The position numbers were made by a program, and so were the translations under genes. A stretch of DNA of 64,000 bases from Trypanosoma brucei (lineage: Eukaryota), in the NCBI GenBank assembly GCA_000002445.1, contig AL929603.2:1-64000 (forward strand), read 5' to 3'. Each line of letters begins with the position of its first letter. Position 1 is the first letter of the stretch. Under the pieces are notes generated by a model. That model ran no database searches. It had not been told where the DNA came from and worked only from the letters and a program-made list of their open reading frames with translations. Positions 10,101-62,836 of the stretch are shown one piece after another.

Positions 10101-12406
10101 AAACCGAGGAAACTTCTGCTTAGGAGCACTGTGTGTGACATCTGCGACGCGCCTTCACTCACTCATCACCAGTCGAACATTTTAAAATGCACAATTGCCC
10201 CCAGCTATATTTACATTCCAACAAGTCTGCGGTCTATTCCCATCAACGAGAAATCAAAGGGATACGCCGCAATATGGAGTTTCACCAAACGGTGCTGTGG
10301 CCCATTTTGTTTAAGCACCTTTTTAGTGTCCGGAGCTGTAAAAAGCGGAGCAAAATAACAAAACTAAAATACACTGCAACAAAGTACCAGACAATCCTAG
10401 GAAACAATCCGAATGTTGCAATATAAAGTTCAATCAAATAACCGAGTCGCTACCGAAACCAAATCGTTTCGCAAGTCGCTAACGAAGGACGTGAGTGCGG
10501 CGCATTAGCAAGCACGAATCCATTGCGAGCACCTTCAGTGTGACTCACATCACCAATGCAGCCGTAGACACAGTAAATTCCAAACAAGCTTGCCGGAGCG
10601 GGCACTCAAATGCCCAAATAGAGAACACAAACGGAGTCACTCGCATCTTTGCAAAAGTGGGACCTTGATCTGTATTTGTTGCCTCCAGTGTCCTCACGAG
10701 TATCCGCATTTACCAGCTACAAATTGCACACTTGAGCCCCTCCCTCCCTCTTGAGATAGAAGGGAAACCGAACAGGGGAAGCTGACGCCCGAACTGCAAG
10801 GGAAACTCAGCATGGACAGAATGAGACACGGCAAATAAGAACCGATAGAAGATCTCTATGAAGTAGGGAGGGTCACTGCCAACACTCCACCAATTTCGTG
10901 TTAGTACACTTTCCAAACCTTTAAGACCCCTTAAGGAGCGTACAACACATACAAAATGGTAACTGGAATACAGCCACAACCGTGAATCAATCGTAGCGGA
11001 CTAACACTTTCATTTCACAAATCTCCAAATACCAAACACACTCGCCCGTAGCAGAAGCAAATGATCCGAAGCATGGGTAAGAGGCCAGACACGTCCAATA
11101 GCACCGGCGGCACCGGCTGGCATCCGAGCGAAACCTAAAGCGGCTAATTAGCAGACGATGAGGACCAACAAAAAAACACAGAGGCAAATCATCCTTGTCC
11201 CACATACGGAGTGTCGGCTGCCGCTCCGACGAGGACACCTCGGCGCTGCCGCCTGTCCGCCAGATCAGGGACTTCCAAACAGCACATCAACCGCGTCCCT
11301 TCACCATGCTTACCTCCCTGCCGCCAACGAAAATTTTCAGCAATGGCACAACAAACTGCGAAGACAACGTCGACAAAGGACACCGTGCAAAAGGTCAGCC
11401 ACTCCAAACACCACCTACGAAAAGCACAGCGCCGCCCAACTGCGCAGCCGAATTCACCAGCCGAAAACCCCGCCCCGCAGCAAAAGACCGGAACCGCGGA
11501 GGAAGCGGACTAACAGCAAATCGCAGCGCCGACGCCAGAGCGCGATTAAGAAACTGCATCGCGCGCGGGTAACACCATCTTCCTCCCCCCAAAGATTACA
11601 TTACCCCAAGGAACGCCGGCGGCCCGTCCTTTTTCCACGCCTCGCCGACATCGACGCCAAGACGGCTCCGGCCACGCGCAACGTAGTCGCTGACGCACCA
11701 AAGAAAAATCCGGCAGATCACATCGGCCAGCGCTCATTGCCATCGCCTGCTGACTACCGACCACCGTCGGAATTGGTCCGCTTCCTGGAGGAAAAACCAG
11801 AAATTTTTCCAATAGCCTCCCCTGTAACAGATACTGGTGTGGTAATAGGGGGACGATATGTGTAGACGGTTGTCCCGCTTTCCGGACACTGAATCAGCGT
11901 TGTGTCGGACTCGTTTTTTGTAAAACATGGGACAACGTTGATGCAATTCCTCCGAATACATCTCCCTTTATTTAAAGAAAGAAATCCCATCTGCTCTCTC
12001 CGACAACACAGTTAACAATTAAGACACCGCAAGACCTTCATTTATCACGCGTTTCTCGTGTGAAAAGAACACCTCATAACTCTTAAAAATAAACAAATAG
12101 GAAAAAGGGGGCATCACATAAAAGCTGCGACAAATGTATTATCCAGTGTCTTTCATTGGTAACAAACCGAAATATCGCTCTGCATTATAGTGATTCTAAC
12201 CCTGTGAAAAGTACTAAAGAAAGCTCTAGTGATATAGACGTCGATATTCCTTACCTCACACCCATAAAGGAAGAATCACCAACTTTACGCTTGCTTACTT
12301 CACTATAAATTGGCGCCTAGCATCTGTGAAAACTTACCTATTTAACATCAAGGTTAGTCGTCAGATCGATATGGCATCAGTTGTAAGTGCGATAGTTGTA
12401 ACCGTG

Positions 12407-12733
12407 TTAAAGTGGATTACAAATTTCATTGAAAATTTTTTTTGCTGAAGGAAAACATACTGCAACAACAATCTTTACAGCCAATTCATACTCAAGACAA
12501 AGGGCAACACATTCTAGTGTTTCAGCCACAAGCGGTCCGTAACACTGAAAAACATGCTTTTGGCCTGATCCATAATACGATTCAACCAACAAACTCCCTT
12601 CGAAAACTGGCGAGTTGATGTCCTCATCTAGTAAATAAAAAAAGCATCTGAAATATTCTCCTAACAAATCATCAACATTCCTCCCCACAGAAAGACAATA
12701 AGTAAGCCAACCTATTAGCTCTTTCAGTTTCAT
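12407..12733 (-). CDS. Hypothetical 108-aa ORF in the interval where the expression-site promoter and first gene would be expected. It may be spurious.
   Basis: The ORF is on the transcribed (minus) strand ~400 bp downstream (in the minus sense) of the 50-bp array. I recognise no family. It does not resemble the ESAG7/6 N-terminus as I recall it. Confidence 0.15.
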   Translation of the reverse strand: MKLKELIGWLTYCLSVGRNVDDLLGEYFRCFFYLLDEDINSPVFEGSLLVESYYGSGQKHVFQCYGPLVAETLECVALCLEYELAVKIVVAVCFPSAKKIFNEICNPL

Positions 12734-13140
12734 CCGGCAACATAAATCACCCTAAGAACCACATAACAAAAGGAAAAATAACAAATAAAAGTTTCCCACT
12801 AGTTAAACAAAGCATCTTTCACACGCATTATGCACATGAATTTACAATAACTAAAAACAGTGAACATAAAAAAACAAAAAAGTAGTGATAGAAAGCACAA
12901 CACATTTAACAACTTTCACAACTGGGATAAATACCTTATCTAAAGCCAAAACCTTTTAGATATCAAACATATTTTACAAAAAATACATATATTAAAAACA
13001 TTTAAACACAAAAACATGAAACGAACAAAACTTTTCACTACTTAAATTTTAAAAAATAAAACAATAAAATATTATTAAATATAACAATAAAAAATTAATA
13101 ACTAAATAATACACAAAACATATATAAAAATATAATTATT

Positions 13141-16100
13141 ACGCTCTATACTGCCACTTGTGTGAGAATACTTTTAGTACAAGCGAGTACACGCAGTATA
13201 CTGCCACCCCTCTGAGAATACTTTTAGTACAAGCGAGTACACGCAGTATAGTGCTACTTGTGTGAGTATACTTTTAGTACAAGCGAGTACACGCAGTATA
13301 CTGCCACTTGTGTGAGTATACTTTTAGTACAAGCGAGTACACGCAGTATACTGCCACCCCTCTGAGAATACTTTTAGTACAAGCGAGTACACGCAGTATA
13401 GTGCTACTTGTGTGAGTATACTTTTAGTACAAGCGAGTACACGCAGTATACTGCCACTTGTGTGAGTATACTTTTAGTACAAGCGAGTACACGCAGTATA
13501 CTGCCACTTGTGTAAAATAACTTTTAGTACAAGCGAGTACACGCAGTATACCGCCACTTGTGTGAGAATACTTTTTGTACAAGCGAGTACACGCAGTATA
13601 CTGCCACCCCTCTGAGAATACTTTTAGTACAGGGGAGTACACGCAGTATAGTGCCACTTGTGTGAGAATACTTTTTGTACAAGCGAGTACACGCAGTATA
13701 CTGCCACTTGTGTGAGAATACTTTTTGTACAAGCGAGTACACGCAGTATACTGCCAATTGTGAGAGGATACTTTTAGTACCAGCGAGTACACGCAGTATA
13801 CTGCCACTTGTGTGAGATTACTTTTTGTACAGCGAGTACACGCAGTATAGTGCCACTTGTGTGAGAATACTTTTAGTACAAGCGAGTACACGCAGTATAC
13901 TGCCACTTGTGTGAGAATACTTTTTGTACAAGCGAGTACACGCTTTACACTGCTACTTGTGTGAGTATACTTTTAGTACAAGCGAGTACACGCAGTATAC
14001 TGCCACTTGTGTGAGAATACTTTTAGTACAAGCGAGTACACGCAGTATACCGCCACTTGTGTGAGAATACTTTTAGTACAAGCGAGTACACGCAGTATAC
14101 TGCCACTTGTGTGAGAATACTTTTAGTACAAGCGAGTACACGCAGTATAGTGCCACTTGTGTGAGTATACTTTTAGTACAAGCGAGTACACGCAGTATAC
14201 CGCCACTTGTGTGAGAATACTTTTAGTACAAGCGAGTACAAGCAGTATACTGCCACTTGTGTGAGAATACTTTTAGTACAAGCGAGTACACGCAGTATAG
14301 TGCCACTTGTGTGAGTATACTTTTAGTACAAGCGAGTACACGCAGTATAGTGCTACTTGTGTGAGAATACTTTTAGTACAAGCGAGTACACGCAGTATAC
14401 TGCTACTTGTGTGAGAATACTTTTAGTACAAGCGAGTACACGCAGTATACTGCTACTTGTGTGAGAATACTTTTAGTACAAGCGAGTACACGCAGTATAC
14501 TGCTACTTGTGTGAGAATACTTTTAGTACAAGCGAGTACACGCAGTATACTGCTACTTGTGTGAGAATACTTTTAGTACAAGCGAGTACACGCAGTATAG
14601 TGCCACTTGTGTGAGAATACTTTTAGTACAAGCGAGTACACGCAGTATACTGCCACTTGTGTGAGAATACTTTTAGTACAAGCGAGTACACGCAGTATAC
14701 TGCTACTTGTGTGAGAATACTTTTAGTACAAGCGAGTACACGCAGTATACTGCTACTTGTGTGAGAATACTTTTAGTACAAGCGAGTACACGCTGTATAC
14801 TGCCACTTGTGTGAGAATACTTTTAGTAGAGAAGAATACACGCAGTATACTGCCACTTGTGTGAGAATACTTTTAGTACAAGCGAGTACACGCAGTATAC
14901 TGCTACTTGTGTGAGAATACTTTTAGTACAAGCGAGTACACGCAGTATAGTGCCACTTGTGTGAGAATACTTTTAGTACAAGCGAGTACACGCAGCATAC
15001 TGCCACTTGTGTGAGAATACTTTTAGTACAAGCGAGTACACGCAGTATACTGCCACTTGTGTGAGAATACTTTTAGTACAAGCGAGTACACGCAGTATAC
15101 TGCCACGTGTGTGAGAATACTTTTAGTACAAGCGAGTACACGCAGTATAGTGCCACTTGTGTGAGTATACTTTTAGTAGAGAAGAATACACGCAGTAAAC
15201 TGCCACTTGTGTGAGAATACTTTTAGTAGAGAAGAATACACGCAGTATACTGCCACTTGTGTGAGAATACTTTTAGTACAAGCGAGTACACGCAGTATAC
15301 TGCCACTTGTGTGAGAATACTTTTAGTACAAGCGAGTACACGCAGTATACTGCTACTTGTGTGAGAATACTTTTAGTACAAGCGAGTACACGCAGTATAC
15401 TGCCACGTGTGTGAGAATACTTTTAGTACAAGCGAGTACACGCAGTATAGTGCCACTTGTGTGAGAATACTTTTAGTACAAGCGAGTACACGCAGTATAC
15501 TGCCACTTGTGTGAGAATACTTTTAGTACAAGCGAGTACACGCAGTATACTGCCACGTGTGTGAGAATACTTTTAGTACAAGCGAGTACACGCAGTATAC
15601 TGCCACTTGTGTGAGTATACTTTTAGTACAAGCGAGTACACGCAGTATACTGCCACTTGTGTGAGAATACTTTTAGTACAAGCGAGTACACGCAGTATAC
15701 TGCCACTTGTGTGAGAATACTTTTAGTACAAGCGAGTACACGCAGTATAGTGCCACTTGTGTGAGAATACTTTTAGTACAAGCGAGTACACGCTGTATAC
15801 TGCCACTTGTGTGAGAATACTTTTAGTACAAGCGAGTACACGCAGTATACTGCTACTTGTGTGAGAATACTTTTAGTACAAGCGAGTACACGCAGTATAC
15901 TGCTACTTGTGTGAGAATACTTTTAGTACAAGCGAGTACACGCAGTATACTGCTACTTGTGTGAGAATACTTTTAGTACAAGCGAGTACACGCAGTATAC
16001 TGCTACTTGTGTGAGAATACTTTTAGTACAAGCGAGTACACGCAGTATAGTGCCACTTGTGTGAGAATACTTTTAGTACAAGCGAGTACACGCAGTATAC

Positions 16101-44936: not shown

Positions 44937-46994
44937 TCACCTTCGCTTTGCTTTCATCGCTCGCCTTCCCTGTGCCTTTTTTGCTTCCTGAAGATCTACC
45001 ATCAGATGAGCATTCATTTCGTCCCCAAACGTTACCTGGAATTGTTCAATCGTTTCCCAAAATGTTTGAAGTTGTTTCGCCTTCCTGGCAGGGATAACTT
45101 TGTCGACGTTAGCCTCACATTTTTGCCAATTGGTAATCACACCGCCATTAACTCCATTCATGTATATCATCTCCCAAGCCATGTTACCCGAAAACGTGTT
45201 CCAGTCCGAAAAATATCCTTTAATTCTCTCCGTGAACGCATTCAACTTTGTCGCAGTGGTGGAGTGACAGCCCGACTTGGTCACGTGTAAAAGGACAAGT
45301 GTCTTTGGTTTTGGCGCTTTTTTCGCTTGCCTTCCAGGCGACATCGTGAAGCGCCCCTCAACGAAAAAAAAGCCATCCACCAAGGGTTCATAGGCTGTGG
45401 CGGGAGTGTAGAGCACCATGTATTCGCAGCGTTCAATTGGGTTCTGCCTGGCTGCTGGTAAGACTTCCCATCCAGTGAGGCACAACTGCTGAGGAGTCAT
45501 GCTACTCAGTATACTTTGTTTTCCCCTCAGCTTCTCAGGCGGATGGAGGTGTCTCAAGTTCTTTGCCATCATCTCGAGAACTCGAGGATTGAGCACCGCA
45601 AACAACGCATGGCTTTCAAATGAAATGAAAGCGGCACTTCTGTTTCTCATCATGAGCTGGGACTCTGCTACTTTTCGCGCAGTAATGCCAAGCACCGCCC
45701 AAAGTAGCAAGGTCCTTATGTGCCCGGAAAGCTCTTTGCTGCGATATGAATCTCCGGAAACTCCATTTCCACGCGAACGGACTATCTGTACCATCTGGTA
45801 CGACACCTCTTCAGTTTGCCAGTTCATTGATGACCTAAAAAGATCCTCGCAGCCATTTTTATCATTAGCATCGAGGCCTCTTATTTTTTTTGCCACCGCC
45901 TCCATTCGCCCGCCGTGCCCCACAGCGTCGTAAACGGCACGAGGCACCGGGCCTGCCACGGCAATACGCTGCTTTACAGTTTCCCATTCGTCCTTTAGTC
46001 CTCCTCTTAACTCTTGTTTCGCCGTGTTGGATACCTTTTTATCTAATGCTACTGATAAATTCTTCCATGCCACAAACGCCTTTATGTCACGCACATCATC
46101 GCAGTTTATAATAATATGGCGGCTTCCCATGTCCTTTTCCCACTCCTCGTAATGTACCGTATCGGGGGAAGTGAGGACAGTTACACCCCAACCCAAATGG
46201 CACAGCTCATCAGGCGGTATAAGTAAGCTCTTACCGATGTCGACAATGATGTGACCTCTTTTTTTTCTTATTGTTTTTATGAAGGTAACGGCGGAATCGG
46301 TGCTTCTGTCTTCCTCAACCCTCCCCTCTTCTCCGGGTTTCTTGTTATATATTAGGTAAGCGATTTTACCCACGAAATATGCAACAACATCAAGCATTCC
46401 TTCATGGAAGTGAAGCAGTGAATGAAGCAAAAATGATCCAAGGCCACATGATTTACCAATACCAGGTGTACCAATAACAATATGTATCGGTGAATCCTCA
46501 GCTTTTTCTACCCAACATGCTCTCAGCCCTTTTTCGACTTTATACCACACGCGCATAATTTCACGACGGATGTATACATGTTTAAATTTTTCGTTGCACC
46601 TCTCAGTGTGGCCCAATGCAAACCTGTTGTATGGCCAACCCTTCTCCGAAGTGAGAACGAAAATCTCCAAACCATCGGGTCTCTCCTCAATCTCTGCATC
46701 AACATTCGCAGGGTCAGGAGTTATATCAACCTCCGCTTCGGTCCATATGCGCTGTGGTTTTCCATCGAACACTTTCATTCCAAGTGGATCTTCATCATAA
46801 CCCGACATCACATAACTCCATTTCGCATTATAAATGGAATCGTATAATTTCTCTTCGAGAGATTTGCCCTCTCCGGTTTCTGATGGGTTCTCGTTTTTTC
46901 GGCCGGCTTGTCTCTTCATCGGGCGGTACGCACCATTCAACCATCCATTTAAAATATTCCGAGTATCTCCCACACAACCACCATTCTGATTCAT
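44937..46994 (-). CDS. RHS: Retrotransposon hot spot (RHS) protein, 685 aa, with a P-loop NTPase motif and an alternative short N-terminus
   Basis: Conserved RHS core KLYDSIYNAKWSYVMSGY...PDGLEIFVLTSEKGWPYNRFALGHTE...VYIRREIMRVWYKVEKGL...IHIVIGTPGIGKSCGLGSFLLHSLLHF (Walker A GTPGIGKS)...INCDDVRDIKAFVAWK.... It is collinear with the 856-aa copy at 60266-62836. The first ~55 residues differ and ~170 residues are absent relative to copy B. Confidence 0.8.
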   Translation of the reverse strand: MNQNGGCVGDTRNILNGWLNGAYRPMKRQAGRKNENPSETGEGKSLEEKLYDSIYNAKWSYVMSGYDEDPLGMKVFDGKPQRIWTEAEVDITPDPANVDAEIEERPDGLEIFVLTSEKGWPYNRFALGHTERCNEKFKHVYIRREIMRVWYKVEKGLRACWVEKAEDSPIHIVIGTPGIGKSCGLGSFLLHSLLHFHEGMLDVVAYFVGKIAYLIYNKKPGEEGRVEEDRSTDSAVTFIKTIRKKRGHIIVDIGKSLLIPPDELCHLGWGVTVLTSPDTVHYEEWEKDMGSRHIIINCDDVRDIKAFVAWKNLSVALDKKVSNTAKQELRGGLKDEWETVKQRIAVAGPVPRAVYDAVGHGGRMEAVAKKIRGLDANDKNGCEDLFRSSMNWQTEEVSYQMVQIVRSRGNGVSGDSYRSKELSGHIRTLLLWAVLGITARKVAESQLMMRNRSAAFISFESHALFAVLNPRVLEMMAKNLRHLHPPEKLRGKQSILSSMTPQQLCLTGWEVLPAARQNPIERCEYMVLYTPATAYEPLVDGFFFVEGRFTMSPGRQAKKAPKPKTLVLLHVTKSGCHSTTATKLNAFTERIKGYFSDWNTFSGNMAWEMIYMNGVNGGVITNWQKCEANVDKVIPARKAKQLQTFWETIEQFQVTFGDEMNAHLMVDLQEAKKAQGRRAMKAKRR

Positions 46995-50427: not shown

Positions 50428-52205
50428 TTAACTCAACATCATATTTCGAATCATCAGTGATAGAGCTTGGCAACTGTATGATTCGATTCCACCAACATCT
50501 GCCTTCACTCTTACAACCTTTACCAACTTGTCCGTAACTTCATTGTTCTTCCAGGCAGCCGTATGCTCAATAATATCATTATAGGAATATTCACCCGACT
50601 TCTTCATAGTTTCCAACGCATCATGAACTCTTTTCAGACGCCATTCATAACAGCTTAAACCAAATATATATAACGAGGCAAAAGCCCAATTGAATTAATA
50701 CGTCCCTCCACTATTCTCCACTCATCTTCCATTTCCTTCCTCAATTCGTATCTTCTTCTGTTGGATACCTTTTCCCTTGTATGTATTGACAGTTTTTTCC
50801 ATGCCACAAATGCCTTCATGTCACGCACATCATCACAGTTTATAATAATTTGGCGGCCTCCCGTATTTGTAGTCCAGTTACCAAAGTGGGAACTATTCGG
50901 GGAAGTGAAAATAGTTACACTCCAAACATCAGAGGGAAGTTGAGTGTAAAGCTGCTGCATTGCATACCTTATGTCCATAATAATGTGTCCTCTGTTTTCA
51001 AATTTCATTTTATTTATGGCGTTGACCGCAGCTCTCAAATCTTCGTACCGCACAACCCTCCCTCTTTCATCACCCTTTCTGTTATATATTAAGTAGGCGA
51101 TCGTGTCTGTGAAATATGCAACAACATCAAGCATTCCTTCATGGAAGTGAAGCAACGAATGAAGCAAAAATGATCCAAGGCCACATGATTTACCAATACC
51201 AGGTGTACCAATAACAATATGTATCGGTGGTCTGTGAGCTGTCTTTTCCACCCACCATGTTTTCAGATCTTTTTCGACTTTATACCACACGCGCACAATT
51301 TCACGACGGATGTATACGTGCTGAAATACTACTTTGCGCCCCGTAGTGTAATCCAATGCAAACCTGTTGTATGGCCAACCCTTCTCCGAAGTGAGAACGA
51401 AAATCTCCAAACCATCGGGTCTCTCCTCAATCTCTGCATCAACATTGGTAGGATCAGGAGTTATATCCACCTCCGCTTCGGTCCAAATGCTCTGTGGTCT
51501 TCCATCGAACACTTTCATTCCAAGTGGCTCTCTACGATAACCCGACATCACATAACTCCATTTCGCATTATAAATGGAATCATATAATCCTTTCAGTTCG
51601 ACAGCACCACCAGCTGTTTGGGCAGCTCGCTTTTCCGCTCTCTTGGCGGCCGTCACCGCTCCATCCAACCTTCCCCTCGCCATGGGACCAACAAATTCCC
51701 TTATTTCCCCTCTCCCCTTCTCCTCCCACTGACTGAGGTAGTAAATTTCTTTTTCGTCAAGGTAGTCTACCTTCTCAGACAGATCAATAGCTGTCTTCAC
51801 TGTTTTAAACTCATCAGTGCCTTGTATATCCTCAAGAATCTCAGCATCAACAATATATCTTCTGGGATTCTTAACAAACAAAAACATGGCCACATTCTCT
51901 GTGTTATACGTGTTTGAGAAGTATTGATTCAAAAGGTCATGCAATTTCATATTACGCAGAACCTCATACCGTTGCAGCAGCGCATCTTCCAGCAGCACAT
52001 CCCTCACCTTACTATCCATAGTCCAGTTGGGCCCCCCTTCAGTTCTCTGCCGTATTTGTGGAGGCTGAGCGGCAGCAGCAGCAGCAGGAGGAGGAGGCGG
52101 TACATTTTCATCCCGCGGTCTCCTCACGGCTGCTCCAAAATTACCTGCCACTTGTTGGTTTGCATTATTTCCTTGTGGAGCTGCGGGACTATTTGCTCTT
52201 GACAT
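50428..52205 (-). pseudogene. RHS: RHS pseudogene (different N-terminal sub-family). It is C-terminally interrupted by a frameshift or stop and truncated at ~50428.
   Basis: ORF 50655-52205 (516 aa) has the RHS core including GTPGIGKSCGLGSFLLHSLLHF and IINCDDVRDMKAFVAWKKL, but stops at ...PRYIYLV where the other copies continue. ORF 50428-50616 in another frame continues the homology (TAAWKNNEVTDKLVKVVRVKADVGGIESYSCQALSL, cf. SAGWQNDVVTHKLVKIVRVSSGTVNVDSYRCRSLSV). Homology then ends in AT-rich sequence. Confidence 0.75.
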
Positions 52206-60265: not shown

Positions 60266-62836
60266 TCATCTCCTTCCACGTCGTCTCATTGCTACGTCAC
60301 CTCGCCCCTCCACAACCTCTTCACGAGCGCGACGCCTTCCCGCCAGTCCCATCAATCCCGGTGCATTTCGCATGCCAGATTCTCGGCGATATGCCCGAAT
60401 TAATTCCGCTTGCATCGTTTCCTTGAGTGTCACTTGGAATTGGTCGATGGATTCCCAAAATGTTTGCGGTCCCAGAGGACCTCCGTCCCCACCTCTAGCT
60501 CTATCGGGAGGTCCTTCGCAAAGTTGCCTGATGGTTATCGTGCCACCGTTAACCGAATTAATGTATATCATCTCCCAAACCATGTCGCGGGAAAACGCAC
60601 CCCAATCAGAAAAATATCTTGCCATGTTTTTTCGGAACTTCTGCACCTTATCCGTAGCGGTGGGGTGCCTGTCCGACTTGGTTACTTGTAAAAGCACAGC
60701 TATATTTGACGGGATCGGTGCCGCTGTTCCGTCACGGTTTCTCCTGAACCGCCCCTCAACGAAAAAAAAGCCATCCACCACGGGTTCATTACCTGTGGCA
60801 GGGAGGTAGAGAACCATGTATTCACAGCGTTCAATTGGTCGCTGTCTGGCCGCAGGTAAGGCCTTCTGCCCAATGAGTCTCAACTGCTGAGAAGCCATGT
60901 CGTTCAGTATGCTTCGACGGTCAGCTATTTCTCCGCCTCGTCGCAGGTATTTCAAGTTGTTTGCGATAACTTTAAAAACTCGAGGGAAAAGAAGCGAAAG
61001 CAACGCAAGCCTTTCAAAAGCGTTGGCCCCAACACACTCGTCTGATAATGTAATCTCCTTTGACGTCATCTCTACAATAAGAATGCCAAATAATGTGCAA
61101 ATCAACATATTCCCAATAGTGACAGAAAGCGATCTGCAACGATATGAATCGACATTGACAGTCCCAGAGCTTACCCGCACTATCTTCACCAATTTGTGCG
61201 TTACCACATCATTTTGCCAGCCCGCAGATTTTCCAATAATCTTACCATATTTCTTTCCGTTATCGCTATCGAGCTGCCTAGCTTCTTTACGCACACTTTC
61301 CAGTCGTTCGTGATACTCAGGGGCTGAGAAAACAAAACGAGGCAATGGACCAACCATGTCAATGCGCTCTTCCACAATTTTCCACTCCTTTTCAAGGTCT
61401 TCCTTCAACTGCTGCTTCGTTTTGTCGCGCGGCGCCTCCTCCGAAAGCACACACAGCTTTTTCCATGCCACAAATGCCTTCATGTCACGTACATCATCGC
61501 AGTTTATAATAACTCTGCGGCTTCTCTTGTCTTTTGCCCAGTGATGAAAATGGGCCTCATCCGGAGAAGTGAGGAGAGTTACACCCCAAGCGTAAACCGG
61601 CAGACCATCGGGTGGCGTCTGCGCATTTCTGCATATGTCAACAATGATGTGCCCTTTTTTTTTCTTGGATACTAACGCAGCTATTGCGTCAACGGCATCT
61701 TCCGGGAATTTATACCTCTCAACCCTCCCCTCTTCTCCGGGTTTCTTGTTATATATTAAATAGGCGATCCCGTCTGTGAAATATGCAACAACATCAAGCA
61801 TTCCATCATTGAAGTGAAGCAATGAATGAAGCAAAAATGATCCAACACCGTATGATTTACCAATACCAGGTGTACCAATAACAATATGTCTCGGTGTTAT
61901 CTCAGCTTTTTCCACCCACCTTCCTTGCAGCCCTCGTTGGATTATATACCACACGCGCATAATTTCACGACGGATATATACATGTTTAAAATTTTCCCCG
62001 CACATCTCAGTGTGGCCCAATGCAAACCTGTCGTATGGCCAACCTTCCTCCGAAGTGAGAACAAAAATCTCCAAACCATAAGGTCTCTCCGGCACTCGTG
62101 CATCAAGATTCGCAGGATCAGGATTTATATCCACCTCCGCTTCGGTCCATATGCGCTGTGGTTTTCCATCGAATACTCTCATTCCAAGTGGCTCTCTACG
62201 ATAACCCGACATCACATAACTCCATTTCGCATTATAAATGGAATCATACACTCCTTTAATTTCGACAGCACTAGCAGCTGTTTGGGCAGCTCGTTCCAAT
62301 GCTACATTGAGTGCATTATTCAGTAGCGCATTGACAACAATCCAAAGGCGCTCTCCATCTCTCAGTCCACGAATATCCGCCTGTAACCTGACCTTTGCTT
62401 CCTCATCTGCTTGTTGCCACTGCTGAAGATCCAATATTCCCTCATCCTCAAAGAAACCATAGACGCTGACAAAACGTTTGTACACTTTATACTCTGGTGT
62501 CGCGAATATTCGATTGAGCGCATTAACGTCATTAATATACTCTTCGCATCGTTGTACAAAGGCAAACATTGATGCTCTCAGGAGACGTTGATCCAAGTCC
62601 ATATCATCGAGTAAATTACGCCTCAAAAAATCATTTACACTCACATTTTCAGGATGAACCCGACCTTCCAGCAAAACTGCGTCAATGCGGCTAAAAAGTC
62701 TCCATTGTGGTTGGTTATTATTCTCCACTCGTTGCTGCACTGCTGGAGGTTCCGCATCGTTACGCGCAGCCTCCTCATTTTCTCGTCTCCTTCCCTCAAT
62801 GTCACCCCTTCCTTCAATAGGAAATTGTTGATTCAT
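60266..62836 (-). CDS. RHS: Retrotransposon hot spot (RHS) protein, 856 aa, apparently full length and uninterrupted
   Basis: Long ORF with the RHS core (VYDSIYNAKWSYVMSGYRREPLGMRVFDGKPQRIWTEAEVD...IVIGTPGIGKSYGVGSFLLHSLLHF...INCDDVRDMKAFVAWKKL...), an Arg-rich C-terminus, and no ingi/RIME interruption. Its 5' flank is shared with copy A. Confidence 0.8.
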   Translation of the reverse strand: MNQQFPIEGRGDIEGRRRENEEAARNDAEPPAVQQRVENNNQPQWRLFSRIDAVLLEGRVHPENVSVNDFLRRNLLDDMDLDQRLLRASMFAFVQRCEEYINDVNALNRIFATPEYKVYKRFVSVYGFFEDEGILDLQQWQQADEEAKVRLQADIRGLRDGERLWIVVNALLNNALNVALERAAQTAASAVEIKGVYDSIYNAKWSYVMSGYRREPLGMRVFDGKPQRIWTEAEVDINPDPANLDARVPERPYGLEIFVLTSEEGWPYDRFALGHTEMCGENFKHVYIRREIMRVWYIIQRGLQGRWVEKAEITPRHIVIGTPGIGKSYGVGSFLLHSLLHFNDGMLDVVAYFTDGIAYLIYNKKPGEEGRVERYKFPEDAVDAIAALVSKKKKGHIIVDICRNAQTPPDGLPVYAWGVTLLTSPDEAHFHHWAKDKRSRRVIINCDDVRDMKAFVAWKKLCVLSEEAPRDKTKQQLKEDLEKEWKIVEERIDMVGPLPRFVFSAPEYHERLESVRKEARQLDSDNGKKYGKIIGKSAGWQNDVVTHKLVKIVRVSSGTVNVDSYRCRSLSVTIGNMLICTLFGILIVEMTSKEITLSDECVGANAFERLALLSLLFPRVFKVIANNLKYLRRGGEIADRRSILNDMASQQLRLIGQKALPAARQRPIERCEYMVLYLPATGNEPVVDGFFFVEGRFRRNRDGTAAPIPSNIAVLLQVTKSDRHPTATDKVQKFRKNMARYFSDWGAFSRDMVWEMIYINSVNGGTITIRQLCEGPPDRARGGDGGPLGPQTFWESIDQFQVTLKETMQAELIRAYRRESGMRNAPGLMGLAGRRRAREEVVEGRGDVAMRRRGRR

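Follow-up and report, generated by a model that had tools for sequence, protein, structure and literature searches.

The first 64,000 nucleotides of contig AL929603.2 (Trypanosoma brucei, assembly GCA_000002445.1; hereafter the window) form the left end of chromosome 1 of T. b. brucei TREU927, with the left telomere at base 1. On the minus strand, at 11795-11859, the window carries a recognisable remnant of an RNA polymerase I (Pol I) promoter of the type known from bloodstream expression sites (BESs). From the sequence comparisons described below, we consider it probable that the site as a whole is a truncated and degenerate BES, whose promoter remnant is likely weak or dead and whose telomeric variant surface glycoprotein (VSG) gene would serve mainly as a donor. 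The site has kept the boundary array, the promoter-upstream block, part of the core promoter, the distal pseudogenes, the 70-bp repeats and the VSG gene; it has lost everything between the transcription start site and the region of the expression site-associated genes ESAG8 and ESAG3. Read from base 1, the order is telomere, VSG gene, 70-bp repeats, ESAG3 pseudogene, leucine-rich-repeat (LRR) fragments, 50-bp array and retrotransposon hot spot (RHS) genes (Table 1).

The initial annotation had expected a minus-strand promoter downstream of the 50-bp array and had recognised none between 12000 and 13140. The expected placement was right, since there is a BES-type core whose start is 1287 bp away from the array and precedes the VSG start codon by 9898 bp. 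The negative is likewise true within that interval, where we found no core match; the site nevertheless has an upstream block at 12010-12577 and a core below it, and the impression of a missing promoter arose because the interval stops 141 bp short of the core. The interval itself comprises two parts: an A-rich spacer abutting the 50-bp array, and the block of conserved, non-transcribed DNA found upstream of BES promoters.

The upstream block was recognised with published primers for chromatin immunoprecipitation (ChIP). Davies et al. 2021 (PMC8034637, Supplementary Table S3) give primer pairs common to all BESs of strain Lister 427, whose sites precede the promoter by about 600, 200 and 150 bp, and the same set includes a pair named 'BES promoter core'. 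All six upstream primer sites are present at 12010-12577 on the minus strand, with order, strand and spacing as in BESs and with 116 of 121 positions identical: two are exact 20-mers, and the other four differ by one or two positions each, two of them including a one-nucleotide indel. Both exact 20-mers are single-copy in the window; even when three mismatches are tolerated, 0.01-0.03 hits per window would be expected by chance. Moreover, measured from the core start at 11859, the amplicons end on the promoter side at distances of 151, 207 and 595 bp, compared with the nominal 150, 200 and 600 bp, and therefore the region is collinear with canonical BESs. The conserved block from -600 to -150, one of the features by which BES membership can be judged, is thus in place. 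Within this non-coding block, and enclosing the -600 amplicon, sits an open reading frame (ORF) at 12407-12733 (minus strand) that is 100% identical to the annotated Tb927.1.40. Its sole database match is itself, it has no Pfam domain, and comparison with the Lister 427 consensus primer shows a one-nucleotide indel inside the ORF; Tb927.1.40 is probably a chance ORF and not a gene.

The core remnant reads ATATC-gtccc-CCTATTACCACACCA, followed by 22 nt and then by TTGGAAAAATTTCTGGTT. The sense primer of the core pair, ATATCCCTATTACCACACCA, matches at 17 of 20 positions when aligned without gaps (11854-11835); alternatively, ATATC, five extra nucleotides (GTCCC) and an exact CCTATTACCACACCA account for all 20 primer positions over 11859-11835. 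The 5' edge of the core is thus altered, by five extra nucleotides or by three substitutions, and the 15-mer CCTATTACCACACCA matches exactly and occurs nowhere else in the window. For the second, antisense core primer (reverse complement TTGCAGAAATCTCGGATA) the window offers no good match. Where its site should lie, on the expected strand and 22 nt past the sense primer (11812-11795), 12 of its 18 positions agree, which is the joint best score among the 127,966 window positions compared (23 positions reach 12 and none 13). Because this joint best score falls exactly where it was expected, the homology probably continues, much weakened, to about 11795. Taken together, identity at the primer sites amounts to 29 of 38 positions in the core and 116 of 121 in the upstream block (Fisher p = 0.0009). 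Hence divergence is greater in the core than in its non-transcribed flank, whereas selection for promoter activity would give the reverse.

These matches also bear on the possibility that the telomere is promoterless and silent, with primer matches that are merely incidental. Such a view could draw on the lack of any core match inside 12000-13140 and on the poor match of the antisense core primer. However, seven independent primer sites are collinear with a BES promoter region, the exact 20-mers have a chance expectation of at most 0.03, and an exact 15-mer core motif stands at the predicted distance. We regard a promoterless telomere as extremely improbable, and as far as sequence can show it is excluded.

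It is just as improbable that we are dealing with a metacyclic expression site (MES) driven by an MES-type promoter. The site resembles an MES in being a short telomeric unit without functional ESAGs, and a putative MES promoter lies at a similar distance, 8.9 kb, upstream of VSG-631 in strain 427 (PMC8034637). Yet the core agrees with the BES primer motif at 15 of 15 positions and with the MES-653 core primers at only 14 of 19 each, and the window holds no other site resembling MES-653, the one MES promoter type compared. Moreover, the core is flanked by the upstream block specific to BESs, the 70-bp repeats form a long region, and the promoter stands 9.9 kb from the VSG gene, compared with the usual 1-2 kb (the criterion being less than 4 kb; PMC8034637). 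The range that the initial annotation proposed for a promoter comparison, 11.5-13.2 kb, includes the BES core. A telomere driven by a ribosomal DNA (rDNA) promoter, as on a minichromosome, was considered too and rejected, the rDNA promoter primers having no match in the window.

Past the core, the similarity to canonical BESs comes to an end. According to Young et al. (PMC2533676, Additional file 2), the region downstream of the promoter can be aligned across 40 BES promoter types from T. b. gambiense, T. b. brucei and T. equiperdum. Two composite queries of 545 and 534 nt, built from positions 100-642 of that alignment, gave no significant match in the window (the best was 32 nt with E 0.7, elsewhere in the window). 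The conserved leader of about 0.6 kb that directly follows a BES promoter is therefore missing from the site, and the canonical similarity, as judged from this alignment, ends at the core or within about 100 bp after it. Neither is there an ESAG7 or ESAG6 gene beside the promoter, although in BESs an ESAG7 ORF amplicon lies about 1.6 kb from the start site (PMC3950698): in tblastn searches of the window with the ESAG7 and ESAG6 proteins all E values exceeded 2, and the ESAG6/7 primer sites had no match there. The ESAG7 query was taken from PDB 6SOY, which had been reached through an ESAG6 sequence.

The place of the canonical leader and of ESAG7/6 is occupied by a segment of 60% GC (11200-11794). 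It forms part of a longer GC-rich stretch, 10200-11794, which reaches up to 60% GC and is C/A-rich on the plus strand. The segment has no Pfam or Rfam match, no second copy in the window by self-comparison and no similarity to the canonical leader. An origin as the 5' end of an ingi/RIME element was considered and rejected, as the L1Tc Pr77 primer sequences (PMC3185411) have no match in the window and no repeat copy was seen. The high GC content seems to have produced, as a side effect, a plus-strand ORF of 237 amino acids (11152-11862), part of which coincides with the core.

Further toward the telomere the site contains only remnants of ESAGs. The ESAG3 pseudogene spans amino acids 1-363 of the 368-residue ESAG3 in frames -3, -2, -1 and -3 on the tblastn map, and thus contains at least three frameshifts. 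It was identified by HMMER (P0013, E 4e-66, 89% identity in the last third; the cluster is named ESAG3); a chimeric query of 692 amino acids assembled from the pseudogene fragments had found no match, and the exhaustive HMMER search then found ESAG3. Upstream of it lie stop-broken ORFs with matches to the Pfam families LRR_14 and LRR_4 (E 3e-4 to 7e-4, below the gathering score), which may be ESAG8/LRRP-like, an assignment made by position in the site only. The order is thus a frameshifted ESAG3 with sub-threshold LRR fragments upstream, and no intact ESAG was found in the site. The 1.2 kb or so between the ESAG3 pseudogene and the 70-bp repeats (6326-7568) holds broken ORFs only and has no Pfam match; the corresponding position of a canonical BES carries ESAG2, ESAG11 and ESAG1. 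At the two ends, the site has what a BES should have, namely a telomeric VSG gene that reads toward the telomere and is preceded by 70-bp repeats, and a 50-bp array at the upstream boundary. The view of this chromosome end as a BES-like telomere, taken in the initial annotation, stands.

Table 1. Features at the left end of TREU927 chromosome 1, numbered from the first base of the window
Feature	Position	Strand	Basis or remark
Telomere repeats, (TAACCC)n on the plus strand	1-104, degenerate variants to ~176	-	TRF and sequence reading; chromosome end
Conserved VSG 3' untranslated region (3'UTR) 16-mer TGATATATTTTAACAC	316-331	-	exact match
Telomeric VSG gene, intact, 526 aa	381-1961	-	ORF and Pfam: VSG_B N-terminal and VSG C-terminal domains
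70-bp-type repeats, TAT-rich, imperfect units	3464-6325	no strand	TRF
ESAG3 pseudogene	7569-8555	-	HMMER, tblastn
Leucine-rich-repeat ORF fragments	9414-10154	-	sub-threshold Pfam
60% GC segment right downstream of the core promoter	11200-11794	no strand	composition
BES-type core promoter remnant	11795-11859	-	primer matches (PMC8034637 Table S3)
Conserved BES promoter-upstream block with the -150, -200 and -600 ChIP amplicon sites	12010-12577	-	primer matches
Primer -150 R	12029-12010	-	19/20
Primer -200 R	12083-12066	-	17/18
Primer -150 F	12144-12123	-	22/23
Primer -200 F	12201-12182	-	20/20
Primer -600 R	12473-12454	-	20/20
Primer -600 F	12577-12557	-	18/20, one extra base
ORF Tb927.1.40, 'hypothetical protein', 108 aa	12407-12733	-	annotation
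A-rich spacer, array to upstream block	12750-13146	no strand	composition, TRF
50-bp repeat array, ~540 units, upstream expression-site boundary	13147-40153	no strand	TRF
Three RHS genes	44937-46994, 50655-52205, 60266-62836	all -	upstream of the 50-bp array

The initial annotation was correct in stating that the state of the promoter bears on VSG expression in situ. Its doubt that this VSG can be expressed in place gains support, on grounds other than the absence of a promoter: the start-proximal part of the core has diverged, the leader and ESAG7/6 are missing, and the ESAG remnants are pseudogenes only. Overall, that annotation's observation is thus confirmed in part, and its interpretation finds partial support. 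Given that the core is altered at its 5' edge and in its start-proximal third, that the native leader is missing and that the VSG gene alone is intact in the site, we believe that the site is likely silent, with a promoter that is probably weak or dead rather than active. The doubt about activity also stems from the nearest analogue in strain 427, BES8, which was tagged but never activated.

The same anatomy could also be read in another manner, in which the core, though variant, would be fully competent as a promoter for Pol I and the locus a natural minimal BES of about 10 kb, lacking functional ESAGs and switchable in situ. This is the most serious alternative, one that we consider unlikely but by no means far-fetched. 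It would fit the exact upstream motif, the 96% identity of the upstream block to the 427 consensus primers, the regular spacing between the two core primer sites and the intact VSG gene with its 16-mer; in addition, 67 bp are enough for BES promoter activity (PMC3950698), and ESAGs can come from other sites (discussed in PMC2567434). On the other hand, the start-proximal site agrees at only 12 of 18 positions and the 5' edge is altered, the core has diverged more than the flank, contrary to selection on function, the canonical leader and ESAG7/6 are missing, and attempts to activate BES8, the closest analogue, failed. A bolder version, in which the variant core, despite five extra 5'-edge bases, a diverged start region and a foreign GC-rich leader, would be a working Pol I promoter and the natural minimal 10-kb site could be activated in bloodstream or metacyclic forms, seems to us improbable.

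Several points nevertheless weigh against a truncated BES with a weak or dead promoter. The upstream motif CCTATTACCACACCA is intact, and the 67-bp core alone suffices in assays (PMC3950698); therefore, loss of the leader does not by itself kill the promoter. The BES promoter of 67 bp requires both of its elements for binding of the class I factor CITFA, and the core suffices for CITFA binding in vitro (PMC3950698). Our comparison of the core spans 38 of some 60-67 positions, by way of primers, with the middle 22 nt lying outside it; it was made against primer sequences in place of the full canonical 67-bp promoter or the mapped positions of the two elements. Similarly, the leader comparison covers positions 100-642, so that the breakpoint of homology is only bracketed. 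Finally, the VSG gene is intact with its 3'UTR 16-mer, and the 50-bp and 70-bp arrays are large, as would be expected if the site were still in use.

Despite these points, we favour the truncated BES, in which case the following course of events may be proposed. A rearrangement beside the promoter would have removed the promoter-proximal part of a BES, which would have decayed afterwards; silent sites with missing or displaced promoters after rearrangement have been documented (PMC6152948). Provided that CITFA can still bind the core, transcription by Pol I would begin near 11.79 kb on the minus strand, and from there the polymerase would read about 10 kb through the pseudogenes to the VSG gene. 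With a weak or dead promoter, the VSG gene would act mainly as a telomeric donor, being copied through the 70-bp repeats or moved by telomere exchange.

The comparison with expression sites of strain Lister 427 illustrates how far such a reduction may have gone. With the canonical BES (Hertz-Fowler et al. 2008, PMC2567434) the TREU927 site shares the 50-bp array, the upstream block, the BES-type core motif, the 70-bp repeats and a telomeric VSG gene with the 16-mer, all of them read toward the telomere; an ESAG3 copy preceded by LRR fragments may further reflect the ESAG8-ESAG3 order. Unlike the canonical BES, which extends over 40-60 kb, it is about 13 kb long, lacks ESAG7/6 and the promoter-downstream leader, has pseudogenes for all its ESAG remnants, and possesses a core that is altered at both ends and followed by the GC-rich segment. 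Closer to it are BES8, which has ESAG7 only, is about 20 kb long and could not be activated after tagging, and BES10, which lacks ESAG4-8-3-2-11-1 and was never tagged (PMC2567434). The TREU927 site is like both in being a much shortened BES with a promoter near the telomere and doubtful activation; however, BES8 and BES10 retain ESAG7 and the canonical promoter (they were cloned through it), whereas the TREU927 site has lost ESAG7/6 and the leader and has a diverged core. With MESs, and with the VSG-631 locus of strain 427 in particular, it has in common a short unit that could in effect express the VSG only and, for VSG-631, the distance between promoter and VSG gene; VSG-631 was not derepressed with other metacyclic VSGs (PMC8034637). 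The TREU927 site differs from them in its BES-type promoter and flank, its large 50-bp array and its long 70-bp region.

The initial annotation had further described the DNA beside the array as extremely AT-rich and A-rich on the plus strand. The spacer at 12750-13146 indeed has 22.4% GC and 52.9% A on that strand, compared with 37.7% GC at 12000-12749, and Tandem Repeats Finder (TRF) detects in it a repeat with a 23-bp period (13044-13106). The spacer adjoins the block of amplicons to which TbSAP, a protein with a SAP/SAF-box DNA-binding domain, was localised by ChIP in strain 427 (-600, -200 and -150; PMC8034637), and it is a candidate platform for TbSAP binding. The 50-bp array beyond it has about 540 units over 27 kb with a 95% match, and its promoter-side end is at 13146/13147. 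The array is composed of two unit subfamilies, ...CCACTTGTGTGAGAAT... at about 13.6-34.85 kb and ...CCACCCCTGTAAGAAT... at about 34.85-40.15 kb; the GC skew reverses at 35 kb, near the switch between them. A few CCACCCCTCTGAGAAT units are found at the promoter-proximal end of the array (13.2-13.6 kb).

As for the remaining features, the protein encoded by the telomeric VSG gene is identical, by exact look-up, to CAJ15942.1/XP_001218755.1 of T. b. brucei TREU927. The 70-bp repeats contain an assembly gap of 100 N (5097-5196), so the length given for that array is provisional. Two of the three RHS genes correspond exactly to RHS4 entries of TREU927; the gene between them (50655-52205) breaks off inside the P-loop domain (RHSP positions 1-180 of 312) and has no exact sequence match in the protein collection.

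In the abstract of Hall et al. 2003, one of the chromosome I ends is reportedly presented as a putative VSG expression site of the bloodstream form, truncated and degenerate in appearance. The locus is hence already known as a truncated expression site, reportedly since the publication of TREU927 chromosome 1, and what we add are window coordinates for the promoter remnant and for the end of canonical homology. The DNA just past the core is single-copy in the window, unlike the highly repeated BES leader, and therefore reads mapped there could reveal whether a diverged, ESAG-less BES promoter fires. The activity of such a promoter bears on the minimal requirements of a functional expression site, and the locus itself may be regarded as a modest example of expression-site decay through rearrangement beside the promoter.

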